From positions 1-55,473 of the forward strand of contig VMGK01000001.1 of assembly GCA_007376535.1 (NCBI GenBank): a DNA stretch of 55,473 nt, given 5' to 3'. Numbering within the stretch: the stretch's first letter is position 1; every line of letters starts with the position of its first letter. A model generated the notes under the pieces. That model did not search any database. It was not told where the DNA came from and saw only the letters and a list, made by a program, of their open reading frames with translations. Positions 25,011-46,683 of this stretch are shown here, in pieces. The position numbers and the translations under genes are program-made. This stretch comes from Candidatus Berkelbacteria bacterium Licking1014_7. GTDB taxonomy: Bacteria; Patescibacteriota; UBA1384; GWA2-35-9; CG2-30-39-44.

Positions 25011-25039
25011 TTGACTTTATCAGTTTTTTATGGTATATT
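25011..25039 (+). promoter_or_regulatory. Sigma70-type promoter
   Basis: TTGACT-N17-TATATT with TG extended -10. Confidence 0.65.
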
Positions 25040-25219
25040 TGGTTCTTATCTCTTGCCTCATATTTGAGGCACCTGAAGTCCCTTGACAATCAGGGTTTAT
25101 CCTCCGAAGCCTGTAGGTGAAGGACGGATTGAGCCGCGAGGTTCCCCTGTTTCAGTTTTGCTCCTTGGCAAATCCCAAACGCCAAGTTGAGCCCAGCTCG
25201 CAACTTTAGGAGGTGTAAA

Positions 25220-27336: not shown

Positions 27337-27555
27337 CCCCTCTGGCAGGGCGCCTTAGCCGCCCTGCCTGTACCACTGTTCACTAAGGGCGACCCGCAAG
27401 GGTCGCCCTTACCCATATCCAAAACCAAAACTGCCCAATGCAGCACCCAAGCCCAAAAAGCACACTTACGAAGTGTACTTTTTTACAGGTTCAGCAAAGT
27501 TCCGCGCTTCATCTCGAGAGACACGAGTCAGGGCTACCGTTCACTCGCCCCTCAC

Positions 27556-27583
27556 CAGACCCTTGGTGGGGGGCGCTTTTTTT
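27556..27583 (+). terminator. Intrinsic terminator
   Basis: cgcccctcacca...tggtgggggcg followed by T-run. Confidence 0.7.
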
Positions 27584-27746
27584 ATTCAAACCCATTTTTG
27601 CAAGCCCGACGGGCTTGCAAAAATATCCAAAATTACCTTCCTTTTAACCAAACAATCTCGGACTTTTTTCTAAAATTGTAATGTTTTTAAGGATCTTTTG
27701 AATTTTTTTTGGGGGAAACTTCTTTAGTTTTTTTACTGCGCGCCTG

Positions 27747-28064: not shown

Positions 28065-28466
28065 TTAGAAATCTATCAATTCTGCAACAAAATCAAAAAC
28101 TCTCCGAGCATTATTGTACGCCTGCTTGGCTTGCTTCAGGGTAATTTCAGATTGTTTTATTCCGGGATACCGCGACCCGACATAATAATCAGTTAGGACA
28201 AAAATTTCTTTTTTAACCAGCGTAATGTCCGACCCCGTTTTATTCGCCAGTTGATAAAGTTTCGTTAAATCGTGTTCTTTGGGGTATGAATTGGCACTAT
28301 AAAGCAACAACGCTTTTAATATTTTCTCTACTGCTTGCTGGCAATGAAAACCGGCAGCCCAGCCCGGCGCCTTTGCCGTCAATATTGCTTCAGCGGCAAT
28401 TAAATCGCCTTCTGCTTTTGCAATCCATTCTTTAATTTCTTCCTGATAATGATGGGTTTTTCTCAT
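28065..28466 (-). CDS. HEPN domain protein (partner of MNT)
   Basis: W..KA..DL..A, FHCQQAVEK.LKA.L, HDL..L, RYP. Confidence 0.9.
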   Translation of the reverse strand: MRKTHHYQEEIKEWIAKAEGDLIAAEAILTAKAPGWAAGFHCQQAVEKILKALLLYSANSYPKEHDLTKLYQLANKTGSDITLVKKEIFVLTDYYVGSRYPGIKQSEITLKQAKQAYNNARRVFDFVAELIDF

Positions 28467-28770
28467 ATAATGTTTTACCTTTTGATAAAACTGTTTCTAT
28501 AAAATAATTTGGAGTTTGTAATTCTTGTGGCGTATAAACCATAATGTCAACTCCCCGCGAAGGGTAGTTGACAATTTTCTTTCTAACCGTGGTCATTCTG
28601 TCAAAAAATTTCTCTCTGGTATTTTTAATAATAAAAAGATCGTAATCGCTATTTTTGTTAGGCTTTCCCATAGTAAAAGAACCGAATAAAATAATCTTTT
28701 CGGGCTTATATCCTTTGACAATTTGATCGGTAATAGATTTGAGTTCTGGATTGACTTTGGGTGATTTCAT
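28432..28770 (-). CDS. Minimal nucleotidyltransferase (MNT)
   Basis: PEKIILFGS...G....SDYDLFII, VDIMVYTP.E, G..LYE. Confidence 0.9.
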   Translation of the reverse strand: MKSPKVNPELKSITDQIVKGYKPEKIILFGSFTMGKPNKNSDYDLFIIKNTREKFFDRMTTVRKKIVNYPSRGVDIMVYTPQELQTPNYFIETVLSKGKTLYEKNPSLSGRN

Positions 28771-28844
28771 ACTCTCACTATATCAAATCCTTGACTTTTG
28801 GTCAAGCAAAATTAATGTTTATGTCCGTTTCGGGTCTAAGGTAT

Positions 28845-28872
28845 TGACTTTTTCGACCGTATATGTTATAAT
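28845..28872 (+). promoter_or_regulatory. Sigma70-type promoter, divergent from MNT-HEPN
   Basis: TTGACT-N16-TATAAT with TG extended -10. Confidence 0.7.
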
Positions 28873-29130
28873 GCAACTCTTGACAATAAATAATCACTAA
28901 TCAAATCTCGAATTTAGTCACGAATAATCGCGAATAGTAAAAAGGATTTAGACGAATGGGTTGCGTTAAAGCAAGACATTCGTTTGAATCTTGACAATTG
29001 GTTTTTTTCCAACGGGCAGCTGCGCCCGATAAGCAGCGCCTTCAAGTGGAAATCGGCTATAAGCCAATCCCTTGGAGAAGAAAAGTCGGTAGGATTGAGA
29101 GCTCCTGCCGCCGCCACTGGAGGTGTCGTT

Positions 29131-29787
29131 ATGAAAACGCTCTCCGCCGCCTTCGTGGCGGCGGCATTTTCCCTCCTCCTTTCCGCGCCCTTGTGGGCGC
29201 AGGGACAGGAGTCGCCAGCAGACGAGGGCGAGGGTATTACGGAGGGCACGCCCGTGCCCGACCCAGACGCCCCAACCCTTCGGACCGTCGTCGACGAGGC
29301 ACAGCGCCTTGTAAACGACGCGATGAAGGGGGTTGTCCGGTCGGACAACCCACGACTGGCGGAGATTGAGCAACAGCTTCGGCTGTTGCAAAATCCGCCC
29401 AAGCCGTCTCGCCCGACCCGCCCCACAACCCGCGGGTCCCGACCCACGCCCAACGCCCCCGCCCCCAGTTCCCCCCAGTCCATCAACGGGCACATCGGGG
29501 ATCCTGGGCACGGCACGACCGAGCACCTCGTTTTAGAGGTGTGGGGCGTGTGCAGGCAACTGCGCGCGCTCCATGGAGGCGCTAAGGAAAGCAAGAACGA
29601 GCTCCTTGCGATCCGAAACCGCCTTGACCGAGTCGACCAGGCGCTCAAGAAGTTTGACGAGCGCCTGACTACCGAACAAGAGGAACGGCAAAGTGATGAT
29701 ACCACACTTGTCGTCCTCTTCCTGCTCCTCTTTGGAGCAGGAATGTTCTTCATCGGCATCACCCACACCCACCAACAAGGAGACTGA
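29131..29787 (+). CDS. GC-rich exported/membrane protein: signal peptide, Pro-rich linker, coiled coil, C-terminal TM
   Basis: SD ggaggtg before ATG 29131; MKTLSAAFVAAAFSLLLSAPLWA signal; LVVLFLLLFGAGMFFIGI. Confidence 0.78.
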   Translation: MKTLSAAFVAAAFSLLLSAPLWAQGQESPADEGEGITEGTPVPDPDAPTLRTVVDEAQRLVNDAMKGVVRSDNPRLAEIEQQLRLLQNPPKPSRPTRPTTRGSRPTPNAPAPSSPQSINGHIGDPGHGTTEHLVLEVWGVCRQLRALHGGAKESKNELLAIRNRLDRVDQALKKFDERLTTEQEERQSDDTTLVVLFLLLFGAGMFFIGITHTHQQGD

Positions 29788-29793
29788 AACAAC

Positions 29794-30408
29794 ATGGACA
29801 CAACCCTCGTCGTTATTCTCGTCGTCGCCTGCCTGTTGGCAGGCGCCGGGATCGGAGCATGGCTTGTATCGCTCCGTCCCCAGCCCGCGCCCCAACCCAA
29901 CAACGCAAACGCCCTCACCCCGACCGTCGGCGACCGGCTCGTCGCCGAGGCAGCCGGAACCAAAGCGGTCCGGCTTGCCCATGGCGCCCCCGCCCCGCCC
30001 AACGCGGGGGGGGAGTCCCTGGTAGAAGGCGGACTGTTCCGCCTCCTCCCCGGAGGAGGGTTTGAATGGCAGGAGTACAAACCTGCCAGGATCGAAGTCG
30101 AGTCCGCGGGCGAGCGGATCGATCGGCTGGAGCGAGACTTTCTCGCTACCCAGCCCCAACCCACCCCCGAGACCCAAGCCCCCGCCTCGACCGTCGTTAC
30201 GGTCGAGACAGCAGGCGCTCAAGCGGACTCCGCGTCCGCTTCGCTCGCCGAACAGACCGCCGCCATTGTGGCGGCGGTCAAGGAAGTGTTGGCCGCCGCC
30301 AACCCGGCGAGCACTACGCCCGCCCCCGCCACCGAACCCGCGCCGCCCCCACTCCTGACCATCGTCCCGGCTGGCACCGAGCCGGCCGAGGGTCCCGCGC
30401 CCACCTGA
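29794..30408 (+). CDS. GC-rich membrane-anchored Pro/Ala-rich protein
   Basis: SD aaggag; N-terminal TM; low-complexity tail. Confidence 0.75.
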   Translation: MDTTLVVILVVACLLAGAGIGAWLVSLRPQPAPQPNNANALTPTVGDRLVAEAAGTKAVRLAHGAPAPPNAGGESLVEGGLFRLLPGGGFEWQEYKPARIEVESAGERIDRLERDFLATQPQPTPETQAPASTVVTVETAGAQADSASASLAEQTAAIVAAVKEVLAAANPASTTPAPATEPAPPPLLTIVPAGTEPAEGPAPT

Positions 30409-30413
30409 CCAAT

Positions 30414-30464
30414 GAGCCCTGCTCGTCGTATGCCTAGCATACTGACGGGTGGGGCTTTTCTTTT
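30414..30464 (+). terminator. Intrinsic terminator
   Basis: gagccc..cgtc.gtatgc-cta-gcatac.gacg..gggct followed by ttttctttt. Confidence 0.7.
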
Positions 30465-30489
30465 ATCTAAAATCAAATATAATGAAAAT

Positions 30490-33952: not shown

Positions 33953-34342
33953 TTATTTTAACTTATTTTTAACTTTTTTAATAATTTTCTCCGCAATGGC
34001 TAATGCTTTTTCCGCGTCTTTTTTGGTATGAAATTCAAAATAAGCATCTGGATATCGGGTTTCAAAATAACAACCAGACAACCATTTAATGCTTCTAATA
34101 TCAATATTGATTTTTTCTCCGTTTTTGCGCAGAAGACTCAGCAATTGAGCTAGATCGTGTGTTTTGGTGAATTTTATTTCTTTGTGTGTTAGCCAACCCT
34201 TAAAATATTTTTCAACCGCTTGCTGGCTATGAAAGCAAGCATTATTAAATAATTTCGTTTGCGTCAAATAACCAGCGGATTTTAAATCTTCCTCGGCAAA
34301 TAATATCCATTCTTTAACGAATTGTTGTTTTGTTTTTTTCAT
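33953..34342 (-). CDS. HEPN domain protein
   Basis: W...AEEDL.SA, ACFHSQQAVEKYFKG, KTHDL..L, ETRYP. Confidence 0.9.
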   Translation of the reverse strand: MKKTKQQFVKEWILFAEEDLKSAGYLTQTKLFNNACFHSQQAVEKYFKGWLTHKEIKFTKTHDLAQLLSLLRKNGEKINIDIRSIKWLSGCYFETRYPDAYFEFHTKKDAEKALAIAEKIIKKVKNKLK

Positions 34343-34667
34343 AAATAGTTTGACCTTCATCTAATGCTTCGCGTAAAAAAAACATCCATTTAGGCACATC
34401 TGAGACCTCTTCTGGTGAATAAACGCGAGGTTCTATTCCGTAAATATCTCGTAGTTTAACAAGCACTTGGTAGACCCTTTGATGCGGACGCACTTTATCC
34501 ACTCCTTTTTTAATAATCAAAAGATCTATGTCGCTATCCTCGTTAAAATCGCCGTGGGCGACCGAGCCGTAGAGAATGATTTTTTCCGGATCGTAGTATT
34601 TGGCGAGGCGTGCCACCGCTTTTTTTATCTTGGCGTCAAATTGTTTTTTAAGGGCTGACCTAGTCAT
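34314..34667 (-). CDS. Minimal nucleotidyltransferase (MNT)
   Basis: PEKIILYGSVAHG...EDSDIDLLII, VYSPEE, EG..IYE. Confidence 0.9.
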   Translation of the reverse strand: MTRSALKKQFDAKIKKAVARLAKYYDPEKIILYGSVAHGDFNEDSDIDLLIIKKGVDKVRPHQRVYQVLVKLRDIYGIEPRVYSPEEVSDVPKWMFFLREALDEGQTIYEKNKTTIR

Positions 34668-34742: not shown

Positions 34743-34771
34743 TTGACTTTTTGTCAATTGTGTGGTATGAT
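34743..34771 (+). promoter_or_regulatory. Sigma70-type promoter overlapping a divergent -35 (ttgac-N6-gtcaa)
   Basis: TTGACT-N17-TATGAT with TG extension. Confidence 0.6.
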
Positions 34772-34837
34772 TGCAATCTAAAAGTTTAAATCTCAAATTG
34801 CCTCATCGGCAATCGCCGTAGAGGCGATCTCAAAATT

Positions 34838-34936
34838 AAGGAACAGATAATTGGTTTTATTCCAGCGCTGTCATTCCTGAGTCGAATGAAATTTACTATC
34901 AGGAATCCATGCAATCAAGCCAGATATTTGTTTCTT
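34838..34936. repeat. About 98-bp hairpin repeat; second copy 37192-37289
   Basis: Ends gaacagata...tatttgtttc; inner gtcattcc(t/c)ga...tc(a/g)ggaatcc. Confidence 0.85.
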
Positions 34937-34967
34937 GTAATTCTAGCCCCCGAAGGAGGAAGGAAAG

Positions 34968-35306
34968 ATGCAGAAGACCCAGACCATCGAAAACCCCCAG
35001 ACCAACTGGGAAGGGTGGGTCGCTTACCTCGCCAGCGCGATCAACGCGCTGGTAGAGGAAAATGAGGGGCGATTCTCCGCCATCGAGGCGGAGAACAGCG
35101 AGCTCCGCGAAGAGATCGCGGAGCTGAAAGGACGCCCCGAGCTCACGAAGGAGGCGCACGATCGCCTCCACCGCGAGCACTCCCGCGAGATGCGGGAGAA
35201 AAGGGAGACAGAGGAAAGCGCCCCCACCCACCCCGCCTCCGACCCAGCCCTGCCTCAGCCCAGCACGGCGATCGAGGCGCCCCCCCTCCCTGAATACCTG
35301 CAGTAA
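34968..35306 (+). CDS. GC-rich coiled-coil orphan ending in LPEYLQ
   Basis: SD aaggagg; heptads IEAENSELREEIAELK; terminator 35330-35376. Confidence 0.75.
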   Translation: MQKTQTIENPQTNWEGWVAYLASAINALVEENEGRFSAIEAENSELREEIAELKGRPELTKEAHDRLHREHSREMREKRETEESAPTHPASDPALPQPSTAIEAPPLPEYLQ

Positions 35307-35329
35307 GGAGGGACTGTTCGCGCCAACTT

Positions 35330-35376
35330 GCGCCAGTTATGTGTCTCGCACACACATAGCTGGCGCGTTTTTTTTT
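35330..35376 (+). terminator. Intrinsic terminator
   Basis: gcgccagttatgtgt...acacatagctggcgc followed by T9. Confidence 0.75.
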
Positions 35377-35455
35377 AAAATTATATACCGCTGTTTTTTA
35401 TCAAAAAACCCGCGTCCCATTTCTGGTAGCGGGTAATAAAACAAAACATCACACA

Positions 35456-36847
35456 TTAAGAATCCAAGCCCAACATTGTTGTTGGCTGAAAATAGTTAAC
35501 CCCCAAAGAATCAAGGAATCGCCCAAGCGCGCCTTGTTTCCCTATGGGCACATGGTATGGAATTACAAATTCTGGTTTAGCAAGCTGGAGCAACAACTTA
35601 ATATCTAGCTGGCTTCCGTGCCCAGAATTATGGATATTTGCCTGCGCAAACACATTCTCCGGCGGATTTGTCCCTAAGGCGCGATAGGTGCTAGGTGAAA
35701 CCACCGCATAGCCCTCCGAGCAGATAGCAGACAAACGACGCACCATTTCAACGACTGGCGCTTCGTTGCCGGGTATGATCTCACTAGACAGAATAATAGA
35801 AGCTTCCTTATGAAGGCGTAATCGCTGGCTTTCACCCAGCGAAGCTAATGTCAACACTGCGTATGGCTCGGCTTGCGATCCTGTGCAGGCAATCAGTTCA
35901 GATCCAAACCCCAAATACTCTCCATCAAACAGCTCAAGAGATTCTCCAATCCCCCAAACCGTTTCCATGGCAGTGCCTTTGGGATGAAACGAACCAATAC
36001 CCAGATCGCGCGCCTTTTTACCAATCATTTGCCAACGCTCAAGATTGGAAGCAAAACCAGATACGATAATCTGCTTCGCTCCTTTTACAAGCAAACGACC
36101 CAACACTTTGCCAACAGTGCTAACCGTCTCGTCCTCTGATTGGGTATAACCAGGGCGATCGCAGTAAAGCATATCAGCAATCACAATATCAAACGGTCTC
36201 TCAGCGCACAGCACATCAACCATCACCTGCGCCATTTGAGAGCCACCGTAATTCTCCTGCAATCGAAAATCACTCATAAACAGCACCTTAAACCACTTGT
36301 CACCCGAAAGCTTAACCTTAATGATAAAGCTCTTAGTCCCGGGGATAGAGTGAGGCACTGTAAAGCTAGTTACCTTAACAAGGTTGCTCAAACTCACGCT
36401 CGAGCACAACCCTTCAAGCTTGGCTATCTGGGGAAACTCTTGCTCGTTATACTCAAACATCGCCTCTGTCATTTTCTCACCAAATGGTGATAGATGAAGT
36501 ATCGGCAAATTATCGTCCCCAACTACTTCGCGCGCCATAGCGTAAAACTCTGGCAACGCTCCTGCATGGTCAAGGTGGCTATGGGTAATAAACAGATGCT
36601 TGATTTTGTGGAGAATATCCTTGAGCGAGTCAAGGTAATGACTACTCGATTTTGATACATGGGCTTCTTGGTCGACGATTGCGTCTTCTGCCCCTAAACT
36701 ACCGGGGGCTTTTCCGCAATCAATCTCGATCCAAAAATCCTCTTGCTTAAAATGAATCGGAAAACAATTGCGCCCAACTTCACGCAAACCTCCAAGGCAA
36801 GAAATACTCAAACAAGGATTGCTAAAAAGTCTATGATGCTTATGCAC
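35456..36847 (-). CDS. RNase J-like MBL/beta-CASP nuclease (no C-terminal domain)
   Basis: LGGLREVGRN, IDCG, THSHLDHAGALP, HSIP, FASNLER, TGSQAEP, IPGNE, HNSGH, IPYH; SD aagggagg before GTG 36847. Confidence 0.85.
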   Translation of the reverse strand: MHKHHRLFSNPCLSISCLGGLREVGRNCFPIHFKQEDFWIEIDCGKAPGSLGAEDAIVDQEAHVSKSSSHYLDSLKDILHKIKHLFITHSHLDHAGALPEFYAMAREVVGDDNLPILHLSPFGEKMTEAMFEYNEQEFPQIAKLEGLCSSVSLSNLVKVTSFTVPHSIPGTKSFIIKVKLSGDKWFKVLFMSDFRLQENYGGSQMAQVMVDVLCAERPFDIVIADMLYCDRPGYTQSEDETVSTVGKVLGRLLVKGAKQIIVSGFASNLERWQMIGKKARDLGIGSFHPKGTAMETVWGIGESLELFDGEYLGFGSELIACTGSQAEPYAVLTLASLGESQRLRLHKEASIILSSEIIPGNEAPVVEMVRRLSAICSEGYAVVSPSTYRALGTNPPENVFAQANIHNSGHGSQLDIKLLLQLAKPEFVIPYHVPIGKQGALGRFLDSLGVNYFQPTTMLGLDS

Positions 36848-36915
36848 TTTGGTTCCTCCCTTTTTTCGCAAGTTGTCAAAGATCAGTATTAAACTGAAAT
36901 AAGAAAGCTTGTTAA

Positions 36916-37076
36916 GAGCTTGTCTGATAACTGCTCTTGAAGCGAAAATGAAATTATTTTAGGCGAAAAAGGAAAATTATGAGGAAAGGTAGCTAATGCT
37001 ACCTTGACGACTAATTTTCATTTTAGAGCCAAAATTAATCATTTGTAGCTATCAGATGTAGTTATTAGACAAGCTC
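36916..37076. mobile_element. MITE, copy 1
   Basis: TIRs gagcttgtctgataact...agttattagacaagctc flanked by TAA on both sides. Confidence 0.85.
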
Positions 37077-37143
37077 TAAAGCCCTTTATATTTTAGTTTA
37101 AATTTTGAATAATTTTGAGATTGTAATAAATATACCATATCCC

Positions 37144-37172
37144 TTGACAAATGTCAATATCTATGATATAAT
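37144..37172 (+). promoter_or_regulatory. Consensus sigma70 promoter, back-to-back with the RNase J-like promoter
   Basis: TTGACA-N17-TATAAT with TG; ttgacaaatgtcaa dyad. Confidence 0.75.
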
Positions 37173-37290
37173 CCTAACTTAAAGTAAAAACAGAAACAGA
37201 TACTTGGTTTTATTCCATCGCCGTCATTCCCGAATCGAATAAAATTCGCTATCGGGAATCCATATAATCAAGCTAACTATTTGTTTCTTA

Positions 37291-37451
37291 GAGCCTGTCT
37301 AATAACTGCTCTTGAAGCGAGAATAAGATTATTTTAGGCGAAAAAGATAAATTATGAGGAAAGGTAGCTAAAGCTACATTGACGAGTAATTCATCTTTTG
37401 TAGCCAAAATAAGCTATTTACAGCTATCAGATGTAGTTATTAGACAGGCTC
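37291..37451. mobile_element. MITE, copy 2
   Basis: TIRs gagcctgtctaataact...agttattagacaggctc; colinear with copy 1. Confidence 0.85.
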
Positions 37452-37518
37452 TTGCACATTGACAACTTGACAGCAAAACGCTTCGCAAAATCTGCCAAAA
37501 CCAAAGGAGGAAAATCCA

Positions 37519-38211
37519 ATGGCAGACGAATCCACAGGTACCGCAGAAGCCATCCCAGAGGGTGGTGAGGACACAAAGGTCGAGGTCGAGGACGTTGGCG
37601 AAAGCCAGACGCCCGAGACCGAGACAGACAACGAGCAGGGCGGGAAGACCGAAGAGGTCGTTGACCCTATGCCCACAGCCCTCGCCGACCTCGCGGACGA
37701 AGCGCTCCGCGCGCTCATCCACGAGATCGCATCAGATGTCGCCCTTGAAGCCCTTACGGGCTTTGGGGAAGACATAGACAAGACAACCAAGCGGATGGAT
37801 GAGGCGCGTCAAGCGCTACTCATTGAAATCCGCACCGGACGCGAGGCGTCCGAAGCCGAGGTTGTGGCTGGCGCTGCCAGCATCGTTGACAACCTCGGCA
37901 AAAGCGTTGCCCGGACCCAGTCTAGCGTGCCCGAACTCCGGGCAGAGCTGGTAAGGTCCGAGCAGGGGCTGCGCCGGGAGATCGAGGAGCTCCGAGAGGG
38001 AATGAAGTACCTCAACGACGAGCTCCAGCTCTGGAAGGGAACGGCGCAAAATCTGGCGCGGATCCTCGAAGCCCGCAAGGTGCTTCAGGAACTCCAGCCC
38101 CAGCCTGCCCCGACCCCAACCAAGACGTCCGCAAGCCCGGTATCCGCCCCGACCCAGCCCGAACCCCGGTCCGCACCCGACCTGCCCGACTTCTTACGGG
38201 ATGTGAGGTGA
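37519..38211 (+). CDS. GC-rich acidic/coiled-coil orphan ending DLPDFLRDVR
   Basis: SD aaaggagg; coiled coil LRREIEELREGM..LNDEL; Pro-rich linker. Confidence 0.78.
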   Translation: MADESTGTAEAIPEGGEDTKVEVEDVGESQTPETETDNEQGGKTEEVVDPMPTALADLADEALRALIHEIASDVALEALTGFGEDIDKTTKRMDEARQALLIEIRTGREASEAEVVAGAASIVDNLGKSVARTQSSVPELRAELVRSEQGLRREIEELREGMKYLNDELQLWKGTAQNLARILEARKVLQELQPQPAPTPTKTSASPVSAPTQPEPRSAPDLPDFLRDVR

Positions 38212-38217
38212 GCCCCA

Positions 38218-38889
38218 GTGGCAAACCCCACATTCTTTGAAAGGATCGGCTTTGGGGAGGTGATAAGGGAGCAAAAGCAGAGAGAGGTTGAAAACGAGCT
38301 TTACGCTCGCAAGATTCAACCCCACCCTACTGCCCGTGCGCCCCAGCCCCCTCCCCAACAAACCAAACCAGTTCGCCTGCGAGGATCAGCGGAGAAAGTT
38401 TTCCGCGAGGTCTTCAAAAGCGAACCCGGCTGGAGAGGCAAACCTAACCCCAAAACCCTTCCGCTGGACATTTTGTTCGGACCAGTTCCGAGCAACCGTT
38501 ATAGCGCGAGAAATGGGGAAGGGCGTTCCCCTCGTCCTCAGGCAACTGAGGGTGTGGTGGAGTTTCGCAACTGGATCCCCGGTCACCGGGGAAAAGTTGT
38601 GATTCATCGCGAACAGCTTTCTGGCGAAGAGTACGCAAGTGCTCTTGCCGAAGCTAAAGCGATCTGGGCTTGCCCAGAGCTCCATCACAAGTACGAGGGT
38701 AAGCTGGTGTCACATCGGCAACCAGCCCCAGCACCGCCAACTTTGCCCGAATGGCTTCGCATTTCTGCGTCGGCTATCCAGCCGGCAATAGAAGCAACAT
38801 CGCAGCCACAAAGGCTAACCTCCCAGATCTTGGAGCTATGCCCAAAGCTCCTTGATTTTCGACTCGCAATGGGCAGAAAAGGTTCCTGA
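38218..38889 (+). CDS. Orphan protein (internal TLPEWLR)
   Basis: GTG start after gaggtga SD; in operon. Confidence 0.6.
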   Translation: MANPTFFERIGFGEVIREQKQREVENELYARKIQPHPTARAPQPPPQQTKPVRLRGSAEKVFREVFKSEPGWRGKPNPKTLPLDILFGPVPSNRYSARNGEGRSPRPQATEGVVEFRNWIPGHRGKVVIHREQLSGEEYASALAEAKAIWACPELHHKYEGKLVSHRQPAPAPPTLPEWLRISASAIQPAIEATSQPQRLTSQILELCPKLLDFRLAMGRKGS

Positions 38890-38941
38890 TTACCCTTGTT
38901 CCCAAAATCAGAATCCATTCCCCGAGGAGGGAAAACAGACC

Positions 38942-39727
38942 ATGAACCCCGTAATCACCGCCTTTCAGGCGGTCGTAAAGTACCTCTTCGCCCAAGGTGA
39001 AGAGGCGATCAGCCAGACCATCGAACTGGCAAAGAGCCAGTTCGATGCCATCACCAGCGCGCTTGCCCAAAAGACCGGGCAGGAGCTGGCGAATGTCGCT
39101 AGCGCGCTCCAAGCAATGGTCGAAGTGGAATACACCTCGATCGGGGCGTTTTGCCAAGCGGTCGAGGCAAAGATTCTGGCGAGCGCGGGAGCAACCATCC
39201 CCGCCTTCCTCGCCACCGCCCCGACCCCGACCCAAACCCCCCAGCCCAGTGCCCCCCCCACTCCGGACCAGATCACCACTGTCAAGGCGTTGGTCCGCGC
39301 CGGCGCGGACGCTGACGAAGCGTTTCGCGTCGTCTTGGGGCGGAACCAGGACGGCACCGAATGGGTGCCAACTGGCAAGCCCGGCGAGTGGGCGAAAGCC
39401 CGCCAGCTCGCCTATGGGATGACGATCATCTTGTCGATGAAGGAGGAGGAGCCCGAGGCGCTAAAATGGCTCCACCACTTTCACGACAAGACCAAGGAGG
39501 CTATCCTGCACACTGCCAAAGAGGCAGAATCGGTGCAGGACTGGCGGGAACGTCTCGTTCGGCAGTACGCGGGCGCTGTTCGCGCCCGCAAAGCGAATGA
39601 GACCGTAGTCGCGATCGGAGCGCAGTGGGGGTTCGACATCGACCTCCACACCATCGCCGACAAAGGGGAAGAAGGAGCGGAGGAAAACGGCACCACCACA
39701 GTGCCAGACTTCCTCCGTCGCTCCTAG
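38942..39727 (+). CDS. GC-rich helical orphan ending VPDFLRRS
   Basis: SD gaggagg before ATG 38942. Confidence 0.75.
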   Translation: MNPVITAFQAVVKYLFAQGEEAISQTIELAKSQFDAITSALAQKTGQELANVASALQAMVEVEYTSIGAFCQAVEAKILASAGATIPAFLATAPTPTQTPQPSAPPTPDQITTVKALVRAGADADEAFRVVLGRNQDGTEWVPTGKPGEWAKARQLAYGMTIILSMKEEEPEALKWLHHFHDKTKEAILHTAKEAESVQDWRERLVRQYAGAVRARKANETVVAIGAQWGFDIDLHTIADKGEEGAEENGTTTVPDFLRRS

Positions 39728-40023
39728 CCCCCGCCCCGACCACCCCCGAAAGGAGTTTTACTCCCCAGCCAGTGAGCTGATTACTGGCTGGGGAGACATC
39801 CAAAATCAGCCCCTGCCTGCTTGGGTTAAAGCAGAGATCATGATGAAAGGAGGTGTCGCGCGATGCGGCGCCACCTGACCATCTAGCCCGCCGCCCACGC
39901 AAGGGCAGGCGGGCGACCCCACAACCCACCCCCCGGGGAGAGCCCACCCGGGGGAATCCCCGTCCGTCCCCGCCAGCAATTGCTGGCGGAGGTTTTCTTT
40001 TGCAAAAATATAGTCCTTTAACC

Positions 40024-40052
40024 TTGACAAACGGATAAAAATATGGTACAAT
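40024..40052 (+). promoter_or_regulatory. Sigma70-type promoter
   Basis: TTGACA-N17-TACAAT with TG extension. Confidence 0.65.
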
Positions 40053-40093
40053 TCAAATGTCTCAAAATCAAGAAGAAAGGTTGATGATTCGAA

Positions 40094-40546
40094 ATGTCCG
40101 AAGAGAAAGTTCGTTTTGTCCCGGCGCTCGTCGAGGCGGAGATTACCCGCCTCGGAGTGCACGATTACGGCTACGGAGACGTAGCCGTAATCGTAGAAGG
40201 GTCCCCCGATTTCCCCGACCCTGAGGTCGGGGACCAGCTGTACCTCCTTGACGGGGTAGTAATACCCGTCAAGGAATCGGGGATGCAGGTTGGGGATCGC
40301 GCCGTCATCGGCGTGATACCCAACAAAAATCCCGACGCGCCCCAGCGATTCGTCGGGATCTTCCTCCAGCGGGAGGAACTGGAGGAACCTGCTACCGCCA
40401 CCCCTGCAACCCGGCGCCTCGCCATCGAGGTTGAGGCGCCGACAGAACTCCTGCGGGACGCCAGCCGCTGGCTGGCAGACGCGCTGGCGGAGTTCGGCGA
40501 GAAGTTTCCGGAGGCGACCGCAAACCTCCGGATCCTGCCCGCCTAG
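40094..40546 (+). CDS. GC-rich orphan (beta-rich N-domain, small C-domain)
   Basis: 150-aa ORF between promoter and terminator 40579-40614. Confidence 0.7.
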   Translation: MSEEKVRFVPALVEAEITRLGVHDYGYGDVAVIVEGSPDFPDPEVGDQLYLLDGVVIPVKESGMQVGDRAVIGVIPNKNPDAPQRFVGIFLQREELEEPATATPATRRLAIEVEAPTELLRDASRWLADALAEFGEKFPEATANLRILPA

Positions 40547-40806
40547 CCCTGCCCCCGCCCGCGACCAGATCTGTCTGTGCCCGCCCGTCCCTTTGGACGA
40601 GGCGGGCTTTTTTTATAGAAAAAAAGCTAATCAGACGCGAATTAAATCGCGAATAATCACGAAATCGCTAATCAAATCTCTAATTTGAGCACTAATAATC
40701 GCGAATACAAGTTTAAGAGATTGCCACTCCCGCCAGCTGGCGGAATCGCAACGACAAAAATGGCAATCGCAATGACAAAAGGTTAAAAATCTGCTACAAT
40801 TAATAT

Positions 40807-41034
40807 ATGAAACCAAACCAAAAATTTATCTGGGACTATGACGCCCAGTCGCTTGATCTAAAAAATCCGCAGGTTTTAAAATGGTATCTCGCGCGCAAAG
40901 TTAATTTTGGCGATTGGCAGTCAATTGACCATAATTTACTTAAAAAATATCTATCCCAACTTGATATTGACCCAACCTTAAAAAAAATGCTTAAAAAATA
41001 TTATGCTTACCAAGCCACAAAAACTCGCTCTTAA
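40807..41034 (+). CDS. Small putative antitoxin (DUF6922-like)
   Basis: FIWDYD...LDL.....W...R.VNFGD; overlaps the AbiEii-like gene. Confidence 0.65.
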   Translation: MKPNQKFIWDYDAQSLDLKNPQVLKWYLARKVNFGDWQSIDHNLLKKYLSQLDIDPTLKKMLKKYYAYQATKTRS

Positions 41035-41638
41035 AATAATTTTTGACTCTAATCTGGCTAAAATCAGCGCTTGGGGCGGCGGGACCGCGCTATCAGAAGT
41101 GTATTTGCATCATCGTCGATCTAGCGATATAGATATAATTCTGTCTCAAATGCCACCATTAAGCGATCTAACTTTATTAGTTAAACAAATAAAATCTGCG
41201 CTCAGGGCAGGCAAGGTTATCTCTTATTCTAAAATGAATCGTTTTCAATATGTGTTTATTAGCGCAAAAACACAATTGAAACTTGAATTTGTTTTTTATC
41301 CTTTTGTAAAATTGAGCAGAATTAAACGGTGGGGAAATGTACGGGTGGAATCGCTTTTTGATATGGCTGCGTCTAAAACCTTGGCGAGTTATCAACGCCA
41401 TGAGCCAAAAGACACGGTAGATATGTATTTTTTGCTAAAAGATAAATTCCCCCTTGCCAAGTTGGTTAAGGGGGTTGAGAAAAAATTCGGCGAGACAATT
41501 GACGCGGCCCATTTGCTGGCAAAATTGACTGATAATTTAGAAAAGTGCCTGGCAATAAAACCGTTGCTGTATAAAAAATTTGATAAAAAAACCGTTGAAA
41601 AATTCTTTCAGCAAGAATTTAATCAATTAAAGTTCTAA
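41003..41638 (+). CDS. AbiEii/AbiGii-like nucleotidyltransferase
   Basis: GGGTALSEVYLHHRRSSDID; K..A..QR...KD..D.YF. Confidence 0.85.
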   Translation: MLTKPQKLALKIIFDSNLAKISAWGGGTALSEVYLHHRRSSDIDIILSQMPPLSDLTLLVKQIKSALRAGKVISYSKMNRFQYVFISAKTQLKLEFVFYPFVKLSRIKRWGNVRVESLFDMAASKTLASYQRHEPKDTVDMYFLLKDKFPLAKLVKGVEKKFGETIDAAHLLAKLTDNLEKCLAIKPLLYKKFDKKTVEKFFQQEFNQLKF

Positions 41639-41735
41639 AACTCGCCAGTCGCTGAAACCGTTTCCACCCCGTAGGTGAAAATAGAATTAGAGCAATTAGA
41701 AATTTTTGTGCTATAATACAACAAAAGGAGGAAAG

Positions 41736-44408
41736 TTGGGCTTTTTATCTTGGTATTATCCAACCGGGATTTTGCAGGTGGGAAAAATTTTTATATTTGC
41801 TCTGCGCTGGGAAATTGAGACCTTCTCAATTTTTGAACTGGCGCGCACGCTTTTTTCGCCCTGGCGCCGCGACATAATCTACGCGGTCCATCCCACCTTG
41901 CAACAACTATTTCAAATCTTTGCTCTGAATCTGGCCTCGCGATTTTTTGGACTGATTATCAGGTTGGTTACTTTAATCGCCGGTTTGTTGATTGTGGTCA
42001 TTTCGTTGATCTTTTTCATCCTGCTTTTTGCGGCGCTGGCATTTTTACCCCTCAGTTTGCCGCTCATCTTAGTGTCAAGCGCGCTTTTGTTTTTTTACCA
42101 TCCATTTTCGCCTTTTGCCTATCTGGCACTGTTGATCTTTATTATTTTAGCCCATATAATTTTTGAACTTTATCAAAAACCATATCTTAAAAATCCGCCT
42201 TTGCCTGAATCGTTAGTGGAAGCAATTGTCAAACTTCACCGCTCCGAATCAATCAATTTGGCGCCGTTTCTTGACTTTGAAGCCAAACAAATTTTTCTTA
42301 AGAGCCCGAATCTGAGCGAACTGAGAAAAAGGTTGATAGAGAGCCAAAAGGCGCGCTTTATTTTTTCCCGCGCCGCTATCAATCCATTAACATTGCCGGA
42401 AAATCATCACATTTCTGCCACGGCTGAGCAATTTTTGCTTTTTGCCGGAGAGCAGGCCGTGCTGGAAAAACACCAGCGGATTGAGGAAGGCGACCTGATT
42501 CTGGCGCTGGCGCATTTTGATCCCACTCTTACCCATATTTTAGCCAGTCAAAATCTTGACCAAAAAGACCTGGCGCAGATCGTTTATTGGCAAACCCATC
42601 TGTGGAAAATCTATTATCCGGTCTCGGTCTTTATCCAACCCGCAAATTTTCAAACCACCGGCGGTATCGCTAAAAACTGGGCGTCTGGTTACACGCCCGT
42701 CTTAGATGAATTTTCCAGCGATATTACTGAAATGGTTGTAAGCAAAAAGTTGGATTATATTTATCTGGCACACCGAACAAATACCGAACAGATTGAGACC
42801 GTACTGAGTCGGAGCGGAAAACACAATGTCATTTTGGTTGGTCCTCCGGGCATTGGCAAACAAACCACAGTGATGGGCTTGGCGCGAAAAATTTTAATCG
42901 GCAAAACCCTACCGCAAATAGCGCACAAACGAGTTGTTAGAGTTGACCTGAACACCGCGCTTTCCGCTTCGTCAGGGCAAGAAGTTGAGCAACGACTGAT
43001 CAGAATTTTGTCAGAAGTCAGCCGCGCCGGCAATGTAATTTTGTATATTGAAGATATCGAGCGGCTCTTTGAAAATCGCAATCTGGCGTTAGGCGCGATT
43101 AACGCTACCCAAATTCTTTTGCCTTTTTTAAATTCAACCCGAATGCAACTGATTGCCACCACCACTAATCAAAGTTATAATTCCTTCATCATCAATCAAC
43201 CCGGGCTGAGCGAGGCGTTTGAAAAAATTGATATTAAAGAACCAAATATGAGCCAATCGCTCCGTATCGCCGAAGAGGTCGCGCCCCAAATTGAAGTTAA
43301 AACCAATACTTTCTTTCTTTATGGCGCGCTCAAAGAAATTGTCAACCAAGCCGACCGCTTGTTTGCGAGCCGCCGTTTTCCGCAAAAAGCCATTGATTTG
43401 ACTGACGAAATCGCCAGTTTTGCCTCCAAAAATAATCTAAAAATTATTACTCCGCAAATCGTTGATCAATATATTTCAACCAAAACAAATGTGCCGATTG
43501 CCGAGGCAAACGCCCAGCAAAAACAAACCTTACTTAATTTAGAAACCAAACTTCACAACAATATGGTCAATCAAGAGCAGGCGGTCAAAGCAGTCGCAGA
43601 CGCCTTGCGCCGATCTTTTGCCGGCGTAGCCAGCCAGGGCAAACCTATGGGGAATTTTCTATTTATCGGTCCGACTGGGGTGGGCAAGACCCAGCTGGCG
43701 CGCTCGCTCGCTGAGGTCTTTTTCGGCTCGCAAAAACAGATTTTACGATTAGATATGAGCGAATTTCAGCAAACCGAAGATATCTACCGACTAATAGGCG
43801 AACAAAAGGCGAACATACCCGGCATTTTAACCGCGCGCATTCGGGAAAAACCTTTTACCTTACTGCTTTTAGACGAAATTGAAAAAGCCCACCCCAACAT
43901 CTTAAATCTCTTTTTGCAAATTTTAGACGAAGGGCAAATTACCGACACTTTTGGCGAAAAAGCCTATTTTAAGAACGCTCTGATCATCGCCACTTCCAAC
44001 GCCGGCTCGAATTTTATTCGCCAGGAATTAGAAAAAAACGCGCCGATGGAACAAATTTCTCCCAAACTTCTGGATTACATTCAAAACCAAAAAATTTTTA
44101 CGCCTGAATTCTTAAACCGCTTTGACGCGATCATCGCTTTTCGCTCGCTCAAAATTGAAGAATTAGAACAAGTGATGGAAATAAAAATCAGAAAATTAAA
44201 TCACCAACTGAAAAATAAAGTGATGGTTAATCTTTCCGGCCAGGCAATCAAAAAACTTGCCATATTAGGTCAAGATCCGGAATTTGGCGCCCGGGCATTA
44301 GAAAGAGTGTTGCAAGATAAAGTTGAAAACTTAGTTGCCAACGCCATACTTAACAATCAAGTTGCAGCCAACCAAACTTTTGTAATCAGCGAAAAGATGA
44401 TAAAATAG
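41736..44408 (+). CDS. Membrane-anchored ClpA/ClpB-like double AAA+ ATPase
   Basis: N-terminal TMs; GPPGIGK/LYIED; GPTGVGKT, LDMSEFQ, LLLDEIEKAHP, PEFLNRFD, FGARAL; SD aaaggagg before TTG 41736. Confidence 0.88.
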   Translation: MGFLSWYYPTGILQVGKIFIFALRWEIETFSIFELARTLFSPWRRDIIYAVHPTLQQLFQIFALNLASRFFGLIIRLVTLIAGLLIVVISLIFFILLFAALAFLPLSLPLILVSSALLFFYHPFSPFAYLALLIFIILAHIIFELYQKPYLKNPPLPESLVEAIVKLHRSESINLAPFLDFEAKQIFLKSPNLSELRKRLIESQKARFIFSRAAINPLTLPENHHISATAEQFLLFAGEQAVLEKHQRIEEGDLILALAHFDPTLTHILASQNLDQKDLAQIVYWQTHLWKIYYPVSVFIQPANFQTTGGIAKNWASGYTPVLDEFSSDITEMVVSKKLDYIYLAHRTNTEQIETVLSRSGKHNVILVGPPGIGKQTTVMGLARKILIGKTLPQIAHKRVVRVDLNTALSASSGQEVEQRLIRILSEVSRAGNVILYIEDIERLFENRNLALGAINATQILLPFLNSTRMQLIATTTNQSYNSFIINQPGLSEAFEKIDIKEPNMSQSLRIAEEVAPQIEVKTNTFFLYGALKEIVNQADRLFASRRFPQKAIDLTDEIASFASKNNLKIITPQIVDQYISTKTNVPIAEANAQQKQTLLNLETKLHNNMVNQEQAVKAVADALRRSFAGVASQGKPMGNFLFIGPTGVGKTQLARSLAEVFFGSQKQILRLDMSEFQQTEDIYRLIGEQKANIPGILTARIREKPFTLLLLDEIEKAHPNILNLFLQILDEGQITDTFGEKAYFKNALIIATSNAGSNFIRQELEKNAPMEQISPKLLDYIQNQKIFTPEFLNRFDAIIAFRSLKIEELEQVMEIKIRKLNHQLKNKVMVNLSGQAIKKLAILGQDPEFGARALERVLQDKVENLVANAILNNQVAANQTFVISEKMIK

Positions 44409-44688
44409 AATCAAGCCAAGCAGGCTTGACAATTTCTAATTTTTAATTTCTAATTTCTAAACAAATCTAAATGACCAAACTCCAAATCTAAAAAATTGTT
44501 TAGAATTTAGGATTTAGAGTTTAGGGTTTATCGGTAAGGAGGGTTGTGCCCCAGTATAAGGTGCCACAAAATATAGATTTGGCTGACCCCATAAAATTGC
44601 TTTCTGAAAAAGGGACTGCGTCCTCTAATTTCAAAAGCGCAATTTACGGGGCGAGACCTTGCCGCAAATTAACCCAGAGGAGTTCGTA

Positions 44689-45090
44689 ATGCCTCAGTAT
44701 AAAGTGCCACAAAATATAGATTTGGCTGATAAAATTGTTGGACCGCTTACCTTATTGCAGTTTGCCTATCTTTTGGTGGGCGGAATGATTGCCTTTGGAA
44801 TTTTCAAAACCGGCAATTTAATAATTTTTATTTTAATCGGCGCGCCGATTGCCTTGCTTTCTCTGGCGCTGGCTTTTGTCAAAGTGCAAAATATGCCTTT
44901 TGGAAATTTTTTATTGAATATGATTTGGTTCACTCTTTCGCCCAAAGCGCGCGTCTGGCGCCATTCCCAATCCAGCCAACCAACTCAAATAAAAACAGAC
45001 GATCAAAAAAATGCCAGCCAGCAAGTTGTGGAAAGAAAAATCCTGAATAAAAAAAACCTCTTTGAAATCAGCAAGAAATTGGACAGATAA
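44689..45090 (+). CDS. PrgI-family membrane protein (VirB3-like)
   Basis: MPQYKVPQNID..DKIVGPLTL.QF.YL, two TMs, P..RVW. Confidence 0.85.
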   Translation: MPQYKVPQNIDLADKIVGPLTLLQFAYLLVGGMIAFGIFKTGNLIIFILIGAPIALLSLALAFVKVQNMPFGNFLLNMIWFTLSPKARVWRHSQSSQPTQIKTDDQKNASQQVVERKILNKKNLFEISKKLDR

Positions 45091-45130: not shown

Positions 45131-45496
45131 ATGAATACTAAAATCCAAAATCCTAATGACAAAAAGTATGATTTGGAAGAAAGAACCGCCAAGTTTGCCG
45201 AAGAAGTTTTAGTTTTCCTTAAAACCATCGAAGAAACAACCATAAATAAGCCGATCATCAGTCAGCTTGTCAGAGCGGTTACTAGTATTGCGGCTAATTA
45301 TTGCGAAGCTGATGGAGCTGAGTCGAAAAAGGACTTTAAGCACAAGATAGCAATTTGCAAGAAAGAATCTAAAGAAACAAAATTATGGTTAAGAATGCTG
45401 GCAAAAGTCAATCCCGAAATACAAGAGAAATACCGCAAATTCTGGCAAGAAGCTCAAGAATTAACCTTGATTTTTTCAGCGATTTTTAAAAAATAA
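45131..45496 (+). CDS. Four helix bundle protein
   Basis: YDLEERTAKF, QLVRA.TSIAANYCEA..AESKKDF.HK..ICKKE.KET..WL. Confidence 0.92.
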   Translation: MNTKIQNPNDKKYDLEERTAKFAEEVLVFLKTIEETTINKPIISQLVRAVTSIAANYCEADGAESKKDFKHKIAICKKESKETKLWLRMLAKVNPEIQEKYRKFWQEAQELTLIFSAIFKK

Positions 45497-45586: not shown

Positions 45587-46603
45587 ATGCCCACAACTGC
45601 CTCAACTCAACAATCTGTGCCAATCGCGCAAATCAGAAAGTCCGTCGCGATTTTGAAAAGCGGAGGAATCCGGGCGATTTTAAGAATCACGCCGGTTAAC
45701 TTTGCTTTGAAAAGCCAACAGGATCAAGAGGTCTTGGTGGGACAATATCAAAATTTTTTAAATTCGCTTGATTTTCCAGTGCAACTATTGGTTCAATCCA
45801 GAAAAATAGATGTCTATCCCTACCTTAAAGGTCTGGCGGATTTTAGTCAAAACATCTCGTCTGACCTGCTAAGAATTCAAATTATTGACTATATAAATTT
45901 TGTGCAAAAACTCACTGAGTTGGCAAATGTGATGGAAAAAATATTTTTTTGCGTGGTGCCGTACGAACCAAACCCAACGGAAAATCCCAGTTTTTTAAAG
46001 AAAATTTTTTCCAGCCGACCCAAAATTTCCATCAACAAAACCCAATTTGATAAATATCAGAGCGAATTAGAACAGAGAGTAAAAGTAATTGCGTCCGGGC
46101 TCGAAGCCATGGGACTGGAAGTAAAACGGCTTGACACTCAAGAAATTATTGAAGAACTCTACAATATCTACAATCCAGGAGAAGCGCACGAGGAACGGTT
46201 GGGTAAAATGGCAAAAATCGACGCGCCGATCATACATTCCAAGATGAAAAAACCAGCGCCCAATACCCTTTCTAAACCAGTTAGTAATCTGGCGCACAAA
46301 CTTAATCCACCATCTTCGCAACTAACAACAGTCAATCAACCGACAGCCGAAAAACCAAGCCAGCCGCAACCAGCCGAAAAATCTCAACTCCAAAAACCAT
46401 CAGCCACTATTGACTCTCAGCCAGCCATCGCCAGCCCACAATCACCAATCCAACCAGCGACAGAAACCAAACCGACCAACGAAACCATTCCCCAAACCGC
46501 TGATATTCCTTCTTCCGAACCAGCCCAAATTGCTCCGGATCAAAAAACGATTGATCCGCAAGTCGCGCTTGACGCCGAAGCGATACTGAAAAACCTGCAA
46601 TAA
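45587..46603 (+). CDS. T4SS-associated TraC/VirB4-N-like protein with P/Q-rich tail
   Basis: STQ..VPI..IR, NF.LKS..QE.....YQ.FLNSL.FP.Q...QSRK; sits between prgI and virB4. Confidence 0.7.
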   Translation: MPTTASTQQSVPIAQIRKSVAILKSGGIRAILRITPVNFALKSQQDQEVLVGQYQNFLNSLDFPVQLLVQSRKIDVYPYLKGLADFSQNISSDLLRIQIIDYINFVQKLTELANVMEKIFFCVVPYEPNPTENPSFLKKIFSSRPKISINKTQFDKYQSELEQRVKVIASGLEAMGLEVKRLDTQEIIEELYNIYNPGEAHEERLGKMAKIDAPIIHSKMKKPAPNTLSKPVSNLAHKLNPPSSQLTTVNQPTAEKPSQPQPAEKSQLQKPSATIDSQPAIASPQSPIQPATETKPTNETIPQTADIPSSEPAQIAPDQKTIDPQVALDAEAILKNLQ

Positions 46604-46683
46604 AGAAACAAATAAGAGATAAAAATGAAGAATTAAGAATTGAAATAGTAAATCAAAAATTTCTTAATTTTAATTTGAAAATT

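Follow-up and report, generated by a model that had tools for sequence, protein, structure and literature searches.

Four otherwise unrelated proteins encoded in islands rich in guanine and cytosine (GC) of a 55,473-base stretch of Candidatus Berkelbacteria bacterium Licking1014_7 (contig VMGK01000001.1; the whole stretch is called the window here) carry the same short peptide, [LV]P[DE][FYW]L[RQ]. In three of them it lies at the extreme C-terminus. The motif is genuine and unusual, and the statistics behind it are solid. We read it as a common docking peptide on flexible tethers, most likely a copy of the FtsZ C-terminal peptide that would reach FtsA- or SepF-type anchors, and we assign this reading, attractive but unproven, a probability of about 0.4.

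A short peptide in four island proteins

The carriers are I3_112, I4_230, I4_223 and I4_261 (Table 1). A sequence-only reading of the window had picked out their peptides, and the strings and coordinates it quoted are correct, including an internal TIPAFL in the gene starting at 38942. I3_112 has a helical or coiled-coil middle and a Pro-rich linker ahead of its C-terminal ...APPLPEYLQ*, while I4_230 consists of an acidic disordered N-terminus, a long helical region and a Pro/Thr linker, followed by the tail ...APDLPDFLRDVR*. The basic, partly disordered I4_223 has ...PAPPTLPEWLR... in its interior and a further conserved peptide at its C-terminus. I4_261 is built of a helical N-domain ending in TIPAFLA, a Pro/Thr linker, a globular-looking domain, an acidic linker and the tail ...TTVPDFLRRS*. 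All four motif copies are preceded by a Pro/Thr/Glu-rich stretch of 14-26 residues, the disorder of these linkers being judged from composition only. Net charge is -11 for I3_112 and -23 for I4_230. The fifth GC-rich protein of the cluster, I4_150, is an orphan lacking the motif and may be a cluster-encoded partner of the carriers.

Six-frame translation of the window yields exactly four matches to [LV]P[DE][FYW]L[RQ], all of them in frame in the four island genes, and the looser pattern [LVI]P[DEA][FYW]L[RQK] returns the same four sites only. Block shuffling that kept local composition gave a mean of 0.057 matches and a maximum of 1 (0/300 shuffles reached 4), which bears out the earlier claim that the motif is non-random. 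Because the pattern had been defined after the fact, an unsupervised word test in a reduced amino-acid alphabet was also run, and the most widely common 6-mer was 'lpdflk', carried by four of the nine GC-island proteins. After shuffling, four carriers were reached in 5/1000 runs with the nine proteins and in 0/1000 runs with the five cluster proteins; the grouping of K, R and Q had been picked once the motif was known, a small bias in these figures. The pattern P.[FYW][LIM][RKQ] has 9 matches in 289 frames of at least 60 residues. Four of these are the motif sites, and the other five are internal, three of them in frames not called genes.

The placement of the copies is also as the sequence-only reading described it, with three at the extreme C-terminus behind Pro/Thr/Glu-rich linkers. 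The residues trailing the motif number 0, 3 and 2 in these three and 42 in the fourth; for randomly placed motifs, the chance that at least three of four fall within 3 residues of the C-terminus is 3.8e-5. A DNA repeat was considered as the origin of the motif and rejected, since the four sites differ in codons and have unrelated flanks, indicating a common peptide. The last codons of I4_230 (Asp-Val-Arg-stop, 38200-38224) coincide with the GAGGTGA ribosome-binding site of the GTG-started I4_223.

Searches of family libraries (Pfam, PHROGs, NCBIfam and PADLOC) with the cluster proteins returned only sub-threshold matches of coiled-coil type, those of I3_112 being to Pfam coiled coils. The five proteins had no match in the PDB by sequence at E <= 0.01, and a 22-position profile of the four tails retrieved 0 PDB chains at E up to 10. 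By tblastn to E = 1 there was no match in phages (I4_261, I4_230) or plasmids (I4_261, I4_223). With no family in the libraries and few relatives, all in one lineage, the carriers are the orphans they had been taken for. A tubulin/FtsZ domain is absent from all five proteins (Pfam, NCBIfam, PHROG), placing the carriers outside the FtsZ family and showing that they are not FtsZ paralogues. Paralogy among the four carriers was likewise rejected: all-vs-all BLASTP of nine island proteins gave nothing below E=0.03, in agreement with the claim that they are otherwise unrelated, and the best pairwise match (E = 0.033) is the linker and motif itself. The ESM Atlas model of I4_230 is coiled-coil-like but of low confidence (predicted local distance difference test score, pLDDT, 0.63), with generic coiled coils as structural neighbours and feature matches at noise level (score <=0.83). 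For I4_261 there was no usable Atlas match.

Retention of the tail in homologues had been set beforehand as a refutation test, and the homologues keep it, at 11/11, 8/8 and 5/6 positions, in a single independent lineage. The homologues were predicted independently, align over their full length and are read in the same frame; the known relatives of the carriers form one lineage, 62-74% identical. I4_230 has homologues in five clusters (~71% identity), which are nearly identical to one another and hence count as one lineage. A single homologue is known for I4_223 (P0008, 62% identity), and P0009 is the sole relative of I4_261 among 1.84 billion representatives (73-74% identity). No homologue was found for I3_112 (length range 61-196 residues).

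The I4_230 tail is identical at 11/11 positions in P0002-P0005 and at 10/11 in P0006, compared with 13/26 identical linker positions in P0002 and 8/26 in P0006; the latter also has a linker deletion of 15-16 residues with the tail intact. Between I4_261 and P0009 the tail is identical at 8/8 and the internal TIPAFLA at 7/7 positions, the acidic linker at 8/14 and the Pro/Thr linker at 12/18. The motif of I4_223 is kept at 5/6 positions in P0008 (LPEWLR to LPMWLR), and its flanks at 6/14 and 6/22. As judged from these alignments, the tails are kept while the neighbouring linkers drift to about 50% identity. The second C-terminal peptide of I4_223, ILE.CP.LLDFRL.MG.KGS (38827-38886), is identical at 16/20 positions in the homologue vs 6/22 in the preceding residues, and its LLDFRL loosely echoes the shared motif.

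Two scans of 185,579 species representatives revealed no genome of a close relative. The I4_261 alignment as query produced 289 pattern matches, and none was confirmed. With RNase J there were 25, of which the only one confirmed by tblastn (Ralstonia, 57 residues, 34%) was rejected as spurious.

Likeness to the FtsZ C-terminal peptide

The FtsZ C-terminal peptide, D-[I/V]-P-x-F-L-[R/K], is a 'grappling hook' and the hub for nearly all Z-ring anchors and regulators, with FtsA, ZipA, SepF, MinC, SlmA, ZapD, ClpX, Glp and ARC6/ZipN among its binders. The E. coli FtsZ tail is ...DYLDIPAFLRKQAD*. The peptide has been described as 8 residues with conserved D, P and F, preceded by a disordered linker and followed by 1-10 variable residues, its Asp being called fully conserved (PMC9939409). 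In C. glutamicum FtsZ (DDLDVPSFLQ), the conserved residues lodged in the pocket of SepF are D436, P438 and F440 (PMC7118173). The cyanobacterial peptide is given as LDIPDFLRKRTPPRN (PMC7714070), and an IPDFL core is reported to be kept in cyanobacterial FtsZ and plant FtsZ2 (PMC11285052).

An FtsZ-only pattern, D[IV]PxFL[RKQ], was built from the E. coli, C. glutamicum and cyanobacterial tails; DLPDFLR and TVPDFLR score 5/6 on it. Three window sites match this pattern at 5/6 or more positions, and two of them are the C-termini of I4_230 and I4_261; such matches in the last 10 placements of 80 open reading frames (ORFs) are expected about 0.007 times (P = 2.4e-5). When the 45-residue tails were compared by BLASTP with the 49-residue E. 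coli FtsZ tail, the motifs aligned with each other in register (E-values for single comparisons, 0.013 and 3e-4). The PDFLR of the two tails is identical to the core of the cyanobacterial FtsZ peptide (PMC7714070), and the IPAFL inside I4_261 to the E. coli FtsZ tail.

The core Pro is present in all four copies and in TIPAFL, and all four have an aromatic residue two positions on, then Leu, then Arg (three copies) or Gln (one). That Gln, in the terminal ...YLQ* of I3_112, recalls the ...FLQ of C. glutamicum FtsZ. The layout is also that of FtsZ, with a flexible linker, a peptide of 6-8 residues and, in three of four copies, 0-3 trailing residues. The FtsZ-tail likeness claimed by the sequence-only reading thus stands for DLPDFLR, TVPDFLR and the overall layout; it falls short for LPEYLQ and LPEWLR (3/6) and for the Asp (1/4). 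By sequence comparison, two copies are strong FtsZ look-alikes and two are looser variants.

On the reading that we favour, the four genes would be real, strongly expressed by prediction and horizontally acquired by a low-GC bacterium resembling the Patescibacteria (Candidate Phyla Radiation, CPR). Their products would mostly be coiled-coil or disordered carriers, as suggested by the Atlas model of I4_230, the sub-threshold I3_112 matches and composition profiles. The sole element common to them is a short linear motif, hydrophobic-Pro-acidic-aromatic-Leu-Arg/Gln, at the end of a Pro/Thr/Glu-rich tether, and the peptide would take the place of the FtsZ tail in its pocket on an anchor or regulator of FtsZ. 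Within the bacterium's own cell the receptor would most likely be FtsA; it could be SepF if the proteins reach a SepF-dependent host. Docking might recruit the carriers to the membrane or the site of division, or might set them in competition with FtsZ filaments for the anchors.

Coiled-coil carriers could present two or more tails, gaining an avidity that one weak tail lacks. An isolated E. coli tail peptide is reported to stay on FtsA for only ~90 ms (PMC9098913), so useful binding would need multivalency, and coiled-coil carriers on flexible tethers could provide it. Titration is plausible as well, given that FtsZ C-terminal fragments (E. coli residues 354-383), with a predicted seat on FtsA subdomain 2B, inhibit E. 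coli in vivo (PMC11831152). The cultivated Saccharibacterium TM7x is reported to have ftsA and ftsZ and its host sepF, and the epibiont inhibits host division (PMC10768705), making an own-cell and a host version of the mechanism both conceivable. The identity of the receptor, the oligomerisation of the carriers and their effect on division are what we infer here.

Several observations weigh against a copy of the FtsZ tail. PLPEYLQ and TLPEWLR score 3/6 on the FtsZ-only pattern, leaving only two of four copies as close look-alikes. Asp two residues before the Pro occurs in one copy (DLPDFLR), the others having Pro or Thr there, and Phe two residues after it in two, with Tyr in one and Trp in one. 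The acidic residue after the Pro, present in 4/4 copies (Met in P0008), is a signature of the motif's own that FtsZ does not require. Unlike FtsZ, the carriers have no GTPase domain, and one copy of their motif is internal. Their linkers of 14-26 residues are seemingly short compared with FtsZ tails of 68-104 residues (PMC9939409). Across the window, six-frame enrichment of the FtsZ-only pattern is weak (3 vs 0.96 expected, with 8% of shuffles reaching 3). Conservation is drawn from a single related lineage per protein, with none for I3_112, and at 72-74% overall identity an identical stretch of 8-11 residues is by itself only mildly surprising. At its DVR end, I4_230 overlaps the I4_223 ribosome-binding site, and since these codons do double duty, part of the tail conservation may be a nucleotide-level constraint. 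The window does not contain the organism's own FtsZ, FtsA or SepF. Finally, a Pro-initiated amphipathic turn is a generic binder of hydrophobic grooves.

Islands, leaders and neighbouring genes

The window has a GC content of ~40% and contains four islands of 55-70% GC: I1 (25187-27336), I2 (28984-30408), I3 (34968-35306) and I4 (37519-40546). With their signals, the cassettes span 25011-27585, 28844-30471, 34743-35377 and 37144-40616. All island ORFs are on the + strand, and the motif-bearing genes belong to I3 and I4 only. The cassettes follow one plan, in which a near-consensus sigma-70 promoter and a long AT-rich leader precede a GGAGG-type ribosome-binding site, with at least one ORF behind it. 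On the 3' side of I1, I3 and I4 there are terminator-like hairpins with T-runs, and the 3' end of I2 has only the T-rich word of repeat family D7 (30451-30471). GC at the three codon positions is 0.64-0.75, 0.41-0.62 and 0.53-0.83 in the island ORFs, and 0.50-0.56, 0.31-0.39 and 0.46 in three host genes; for most island genes the called frame has the highest GC at the third codon position (GC3). On the strength of the promoters, ribosome-binding sites, terminators, codon GC and same-frame homologues, we treat the islands as real genes of foreign composition under host-type signals.

Table 1. Positions of the motif copies, island genes, expression signals and secretion genes in the window (aa, amino acids; ORF, open reading frame; GC3, GC at the third codon position; T4SS, type IV secretion system)
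Feature	Position	Strand	Remarks
Peptide LPEYLQ	35286-35303	+	I3_112, last six residues, then stop
Peptide DLPDFLR	38179-38199	+	I4_230, 3 residues before stop (DLPDFLRDVR*, 38179-38211); closest FtsZ look-alike
Peptide LPEWLR	38743-38760	+	I4_223, internal, 42 residues before stop
Peptide VPDFLR	39701-39718	+	I4_261, 2 residues before stop (VPDFLRRS*, 39701-39727)
Peptide TIPAFL	39194-39211	+	I4_261, internal
I3_112	34968..35306	+	112 aa; ORF; GGAGG Shine-Dalgarno; GC3 0.83
I4_230	37519..38211	+	230 aa; ORF and Shine-Dalgarno
I4_223	38218..38889	+	223 aa; ORF; GTG start
I4_261	38942..39727	+	261 aa; start backed by Shine-Dalgarno and by P0009 beginning at the same residue
I4_150	40094..40546	+	150 aa; ORF; GC-rich I4 orphan without the motif
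Promoter, island I1	25011-25039		10/12 matches
Promoter, island I2	28844-28872		11/12 matches
Promoter, cassette I3	34743..34771	+	sigma-70-type TTGACT-17-TATGAT, TG-extended; 10/12 matches
Hairpin leader, copy 1	34836..34940	+	105 nt, between promoter and I3_112; fold z = -5.4
Intrinsic terminator, cassette I3	35329..35377	+	16-pair stem, then T-run
Promoter, cassette I4	37144..37172	+	consensus TTGACA-17-TATAAT, TG-extended; 12/12 matches
Hairpin leader, copy 2	37189..37293	+	105 nt, cassette I4; fold z = -4.7
Own promoter of last I4 gene	40024..40052	+	11/12 matches
Terminator-like GC hairpin and T-run closing I4	40580..40616	+	read from sequence; repeat family D7; missed by terminator scan
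PrgI	44659-45090		T4SS locus
VirB4, CD1110 family	46675-48498		378 bits vs cut-off 325
NlpC/P60-amidase hydrolase	48687-50525		cell-wall hydrolase of T4SS locus

The leaders of I3 and I4 each contain a 105-nt hairpin. The two copies are 85% identical with one compensatory pair, and may represent a regulatory RNA common to both motif-bearing transcription units. Searching the window with a covariance model of the leader turned up no copy beyond these two, and no Rfam family matched them. The leaders of I1 and I2 have no convincing similarity to one another or to the I3/I4 leader.

Two further repeats accompany the cassettes. A 163-nt repeat (36915-37077 and 37290-37452, 86% identical), with one copy on either side of the I4 promoter and leader, folds into a near-perfect long hairpin (-70.4 kcal/mol, z = -10.3) and resembles a miniature inverted-repeat element or a structured RNA. 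The other repeat, AT-rich and 45 nt long, is present once ahead of I2 (28892-28936) and as two tandem copies after I4 (40621-40707), and could be a recombination or regulatory site. Between the I4_261 gene and the next promoter, ~300 bp of GC-rich DNA (39728-40023) have no convincing + strand ORF and could be a long 3' untranslated region or a decayed gene. The first two cassettes, I1 and I2, encode proteins with signal peptides or transmembrane segments, one of them 355 residues long and containing both a collagen Gly-X-Y stretch (Pfam Collagen, 3.5e-8) and glycine repeats of GGAGG type.

Ordinary cellular genes make up much of the surroundings, encoding DnaG, RpoD, KsgA, RNase J, a ClpB-like AAA+ protein, Nramp and ZIP transporters and glycosyltransferases, a gene content that we take to be typical of Patescibacteria. 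A DUF5663 protein is also encoded. Two paralogous HEPN/nucleotidyltransferase pairs (28065-28770 and 33953-34667; 71-79% DNA identity, spacing ~5.88 kb) each lie immediately upstream of one GC-rich cassette, and an AbiEii-type toxin gene (41003-41638) directly follows I4. The small ORF preceding the toxin gene (40807-41034), which has no family match, is its putative antitoxin. With these pairs and the toxin gene adjoining them, the cassettes lie in a variable region rich in toxin-antitoxin genes.

The T4SS-like locus that the sequence-only reading had placed about 5 kb away was confirmed; it is of Gram-positive type, includes PrgI and VirB4 and starts 4.9 kb after position 39727. Its VirB4 is apparently split between a 338-residue ORF (45587-46603), which matches VirB4-type ATPases in their N-terminal part (positions 103-284 of NCBIfam VirB4_plasma), and a 607-residue ORF (46675-48498), which matches the remainder. 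Scans of family libraries found no coupling protein for this system within the window.

Between I4 and this locus, a ClpB/ClpC-like double-AAA+ protein (41706-44408) has an unusual hydrophobic N-terminal region of ~170 residues, apparently spanning the membrane several times. Three genes of the 23S-rRNA-IVP family of four-helix bundles lie at 8554-8913 (-), 24508-24879 (+) and 45131-45496 (+). The Avd accessory proteins of diversity-generating retroelements belong to the same family; a reverse transcriptase was not seen anywhere in the window. At 2770-8379 (-), a 1869-residue protein has at least 9 repeats of Pur_ac_phosph_N/fibronectin-III type, with GC locally up to 57%.

Other explanations and meaning

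The alternative that we take most seriously, while still thinking it rather unlikely, is that the peptide docks on another common hub, such as the I4_150 product, a chaperone or an AAA+ unfoldase, its FtsZ likeness being convergence on a Pro-capped amphipathic turn. The enrichment, position and conservation of the motif support a functional peptide without naming its receptor, and the poor FtsZ fit of two copies and the motif's own acidic position suit such a hub. So does the co-location of the genes in two transcription units with the same leader, as expected for one system, together with the membrane-anchored ClpB-like AAA+ gene 2 kb downstream. However, regular expressions for five other bacterial short motifs (beta-clamp QL[SD]LF, the SSB tail ...[IL]PF*, HbYX, GpsB-binding and LPXTG), gave 0 matches each in the five proteins, and the two best copies agree at 5/6 positions with real FtsZ tails, down to a PDFLR identical to that of cyanobacteria.

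We see little likelihood that the C-terminal peptide acts as a signal for export by, or recruitment to, the neighbouring Gram-positive-type T4SS and not as a division ligand. Type IV systems often recognise their substrates by an unstructured C-terminus, and the carriers resemble such substrates in having unstructured C-terminal elements on unrelated proteins near a type IV locus, whose PrgI, VirB4 and cell-wall hydrolase genes lie downstream. Known type IV signals, however, are patterns of charge or composition and not a sharply conserved hexapeptide like that of the carriers, which also have internal copies, both of the motif and as TIPAFL, and no coupling protein is encoded within the window. 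The type IV system and effector genes of TM7x are reported to shift expression on host contact (PMC10768705), a point in favour of such a signal.

It is similarly doubtful that the tail is a weak membrane-targeting amphipathic peptide, the carriers being peripheral membrane proteins that need no protein receptor. Cyanobacterial and algal FtsZ C-terminal motifs are reported to bind membrane as well as protein (PMC11285052), and the aromatic-Leu-Arg core would provide a hydrophobic and a basic side. Yet six residues with an acidic residue within, and often others around, make a very short and weak amphipathic element, and I4_230 and I3_112 are strongly negative overall.

A coincidence of composition, or a neutral remnant of no common function, also seems improbable to us. 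The motif was defined after being seen, in proteins rich in Pro, Leu, Glu, Asp and Arg; its conservation comes from one lineage at 62-74% identity; and the nine-protein test reached four carriers in 5/1000 shuffles. Against this stand the 0/300 window shuffles and 0/1000 cluster shuffles, the terminal placement (P = 3.8e-5) and tails that are invariant beside ~50% identical linkers.

GC-rich DNA does have long open frames in several frames, and the homologues are on short contigs (1.2-4 kb), but we consider an assembly chimera or chance open frames very unlikely: four islands would need eight chimeric junctions, every island starts from an AT-rich, near-consensus promoter followed by a leader and a GGAGG site, terminators close I1, I3 and I4, most genes have their highest GC3 in the called frame, and independent homologues are read in the same frame with alignment gaps mostly in or near the linkers.

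Set beside known systems, a docking peptide copying the FtsZ tail would share features with several. Like Kil, SulA, MciZ, DicB, CbtA and T7 gp0.4, which are foreign or mobile genes acting on the Z-ring, the carriers are foreign in composition. Those proteins bind the FtsZ globular domain or MinC/ZipA, and we know of none that displays an FtsZ-like tail. The nearest conceptual precedent is the GpsB recognition motif, (S/T/N)-R-x-x-R-(R/K), described in penicillin-binding protein mini-domains, S. aureus FtsZ and PBP4, where unrelated proteins likewise use one short motif for a single division hub (PMC11062636). The GpsB motif itself is absent from the carriers, and its hub is known, whereas theirs is inferred. 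The inhibitory E. coli FtsZ fragments (354-383) offer a parallel for the titration proposed here, a free tail peptide interfering with growth and division (PMC11831152); they are laboratory-made pieces of FtsZ itself, whereas the carriers are natural, unrelated proteins. A limited literature search, covering titles and abstract openings and therefore weak evidence of absence, found no report of natural proteins that borrow the FtsZ tail peptide.

A bolder form of the FtsZ-mimic reading, to which we attach only a small chance, is that an ultrasmall epibiont has gathered foreign, GC-rich carriers under common regulation and delivers them, with their counterfeit FtsZ tails, through its T4SS, and that these dock on the SepF or FtsA of a GC-rich host, stalling or reshaping host division. 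If true, no natural family of FtsZ-tail mimics would have preceded the carriers, and they would give a molecular handle on the epibiont's block of host division. Should the tails bind FtsA or SepF, they would represent motif mimicry of a core bacterial cytoskeletal hub, provide a simple sequence signature for finding further division modulators, and, in a Patescibacteria-like bacterium, offer a testable way in which host division, as has long been observed, is disturbed. With another receptor, the cluster would still be a clean bacterial case of one docking motif spread across unrelated, horizontally acquired proteins.

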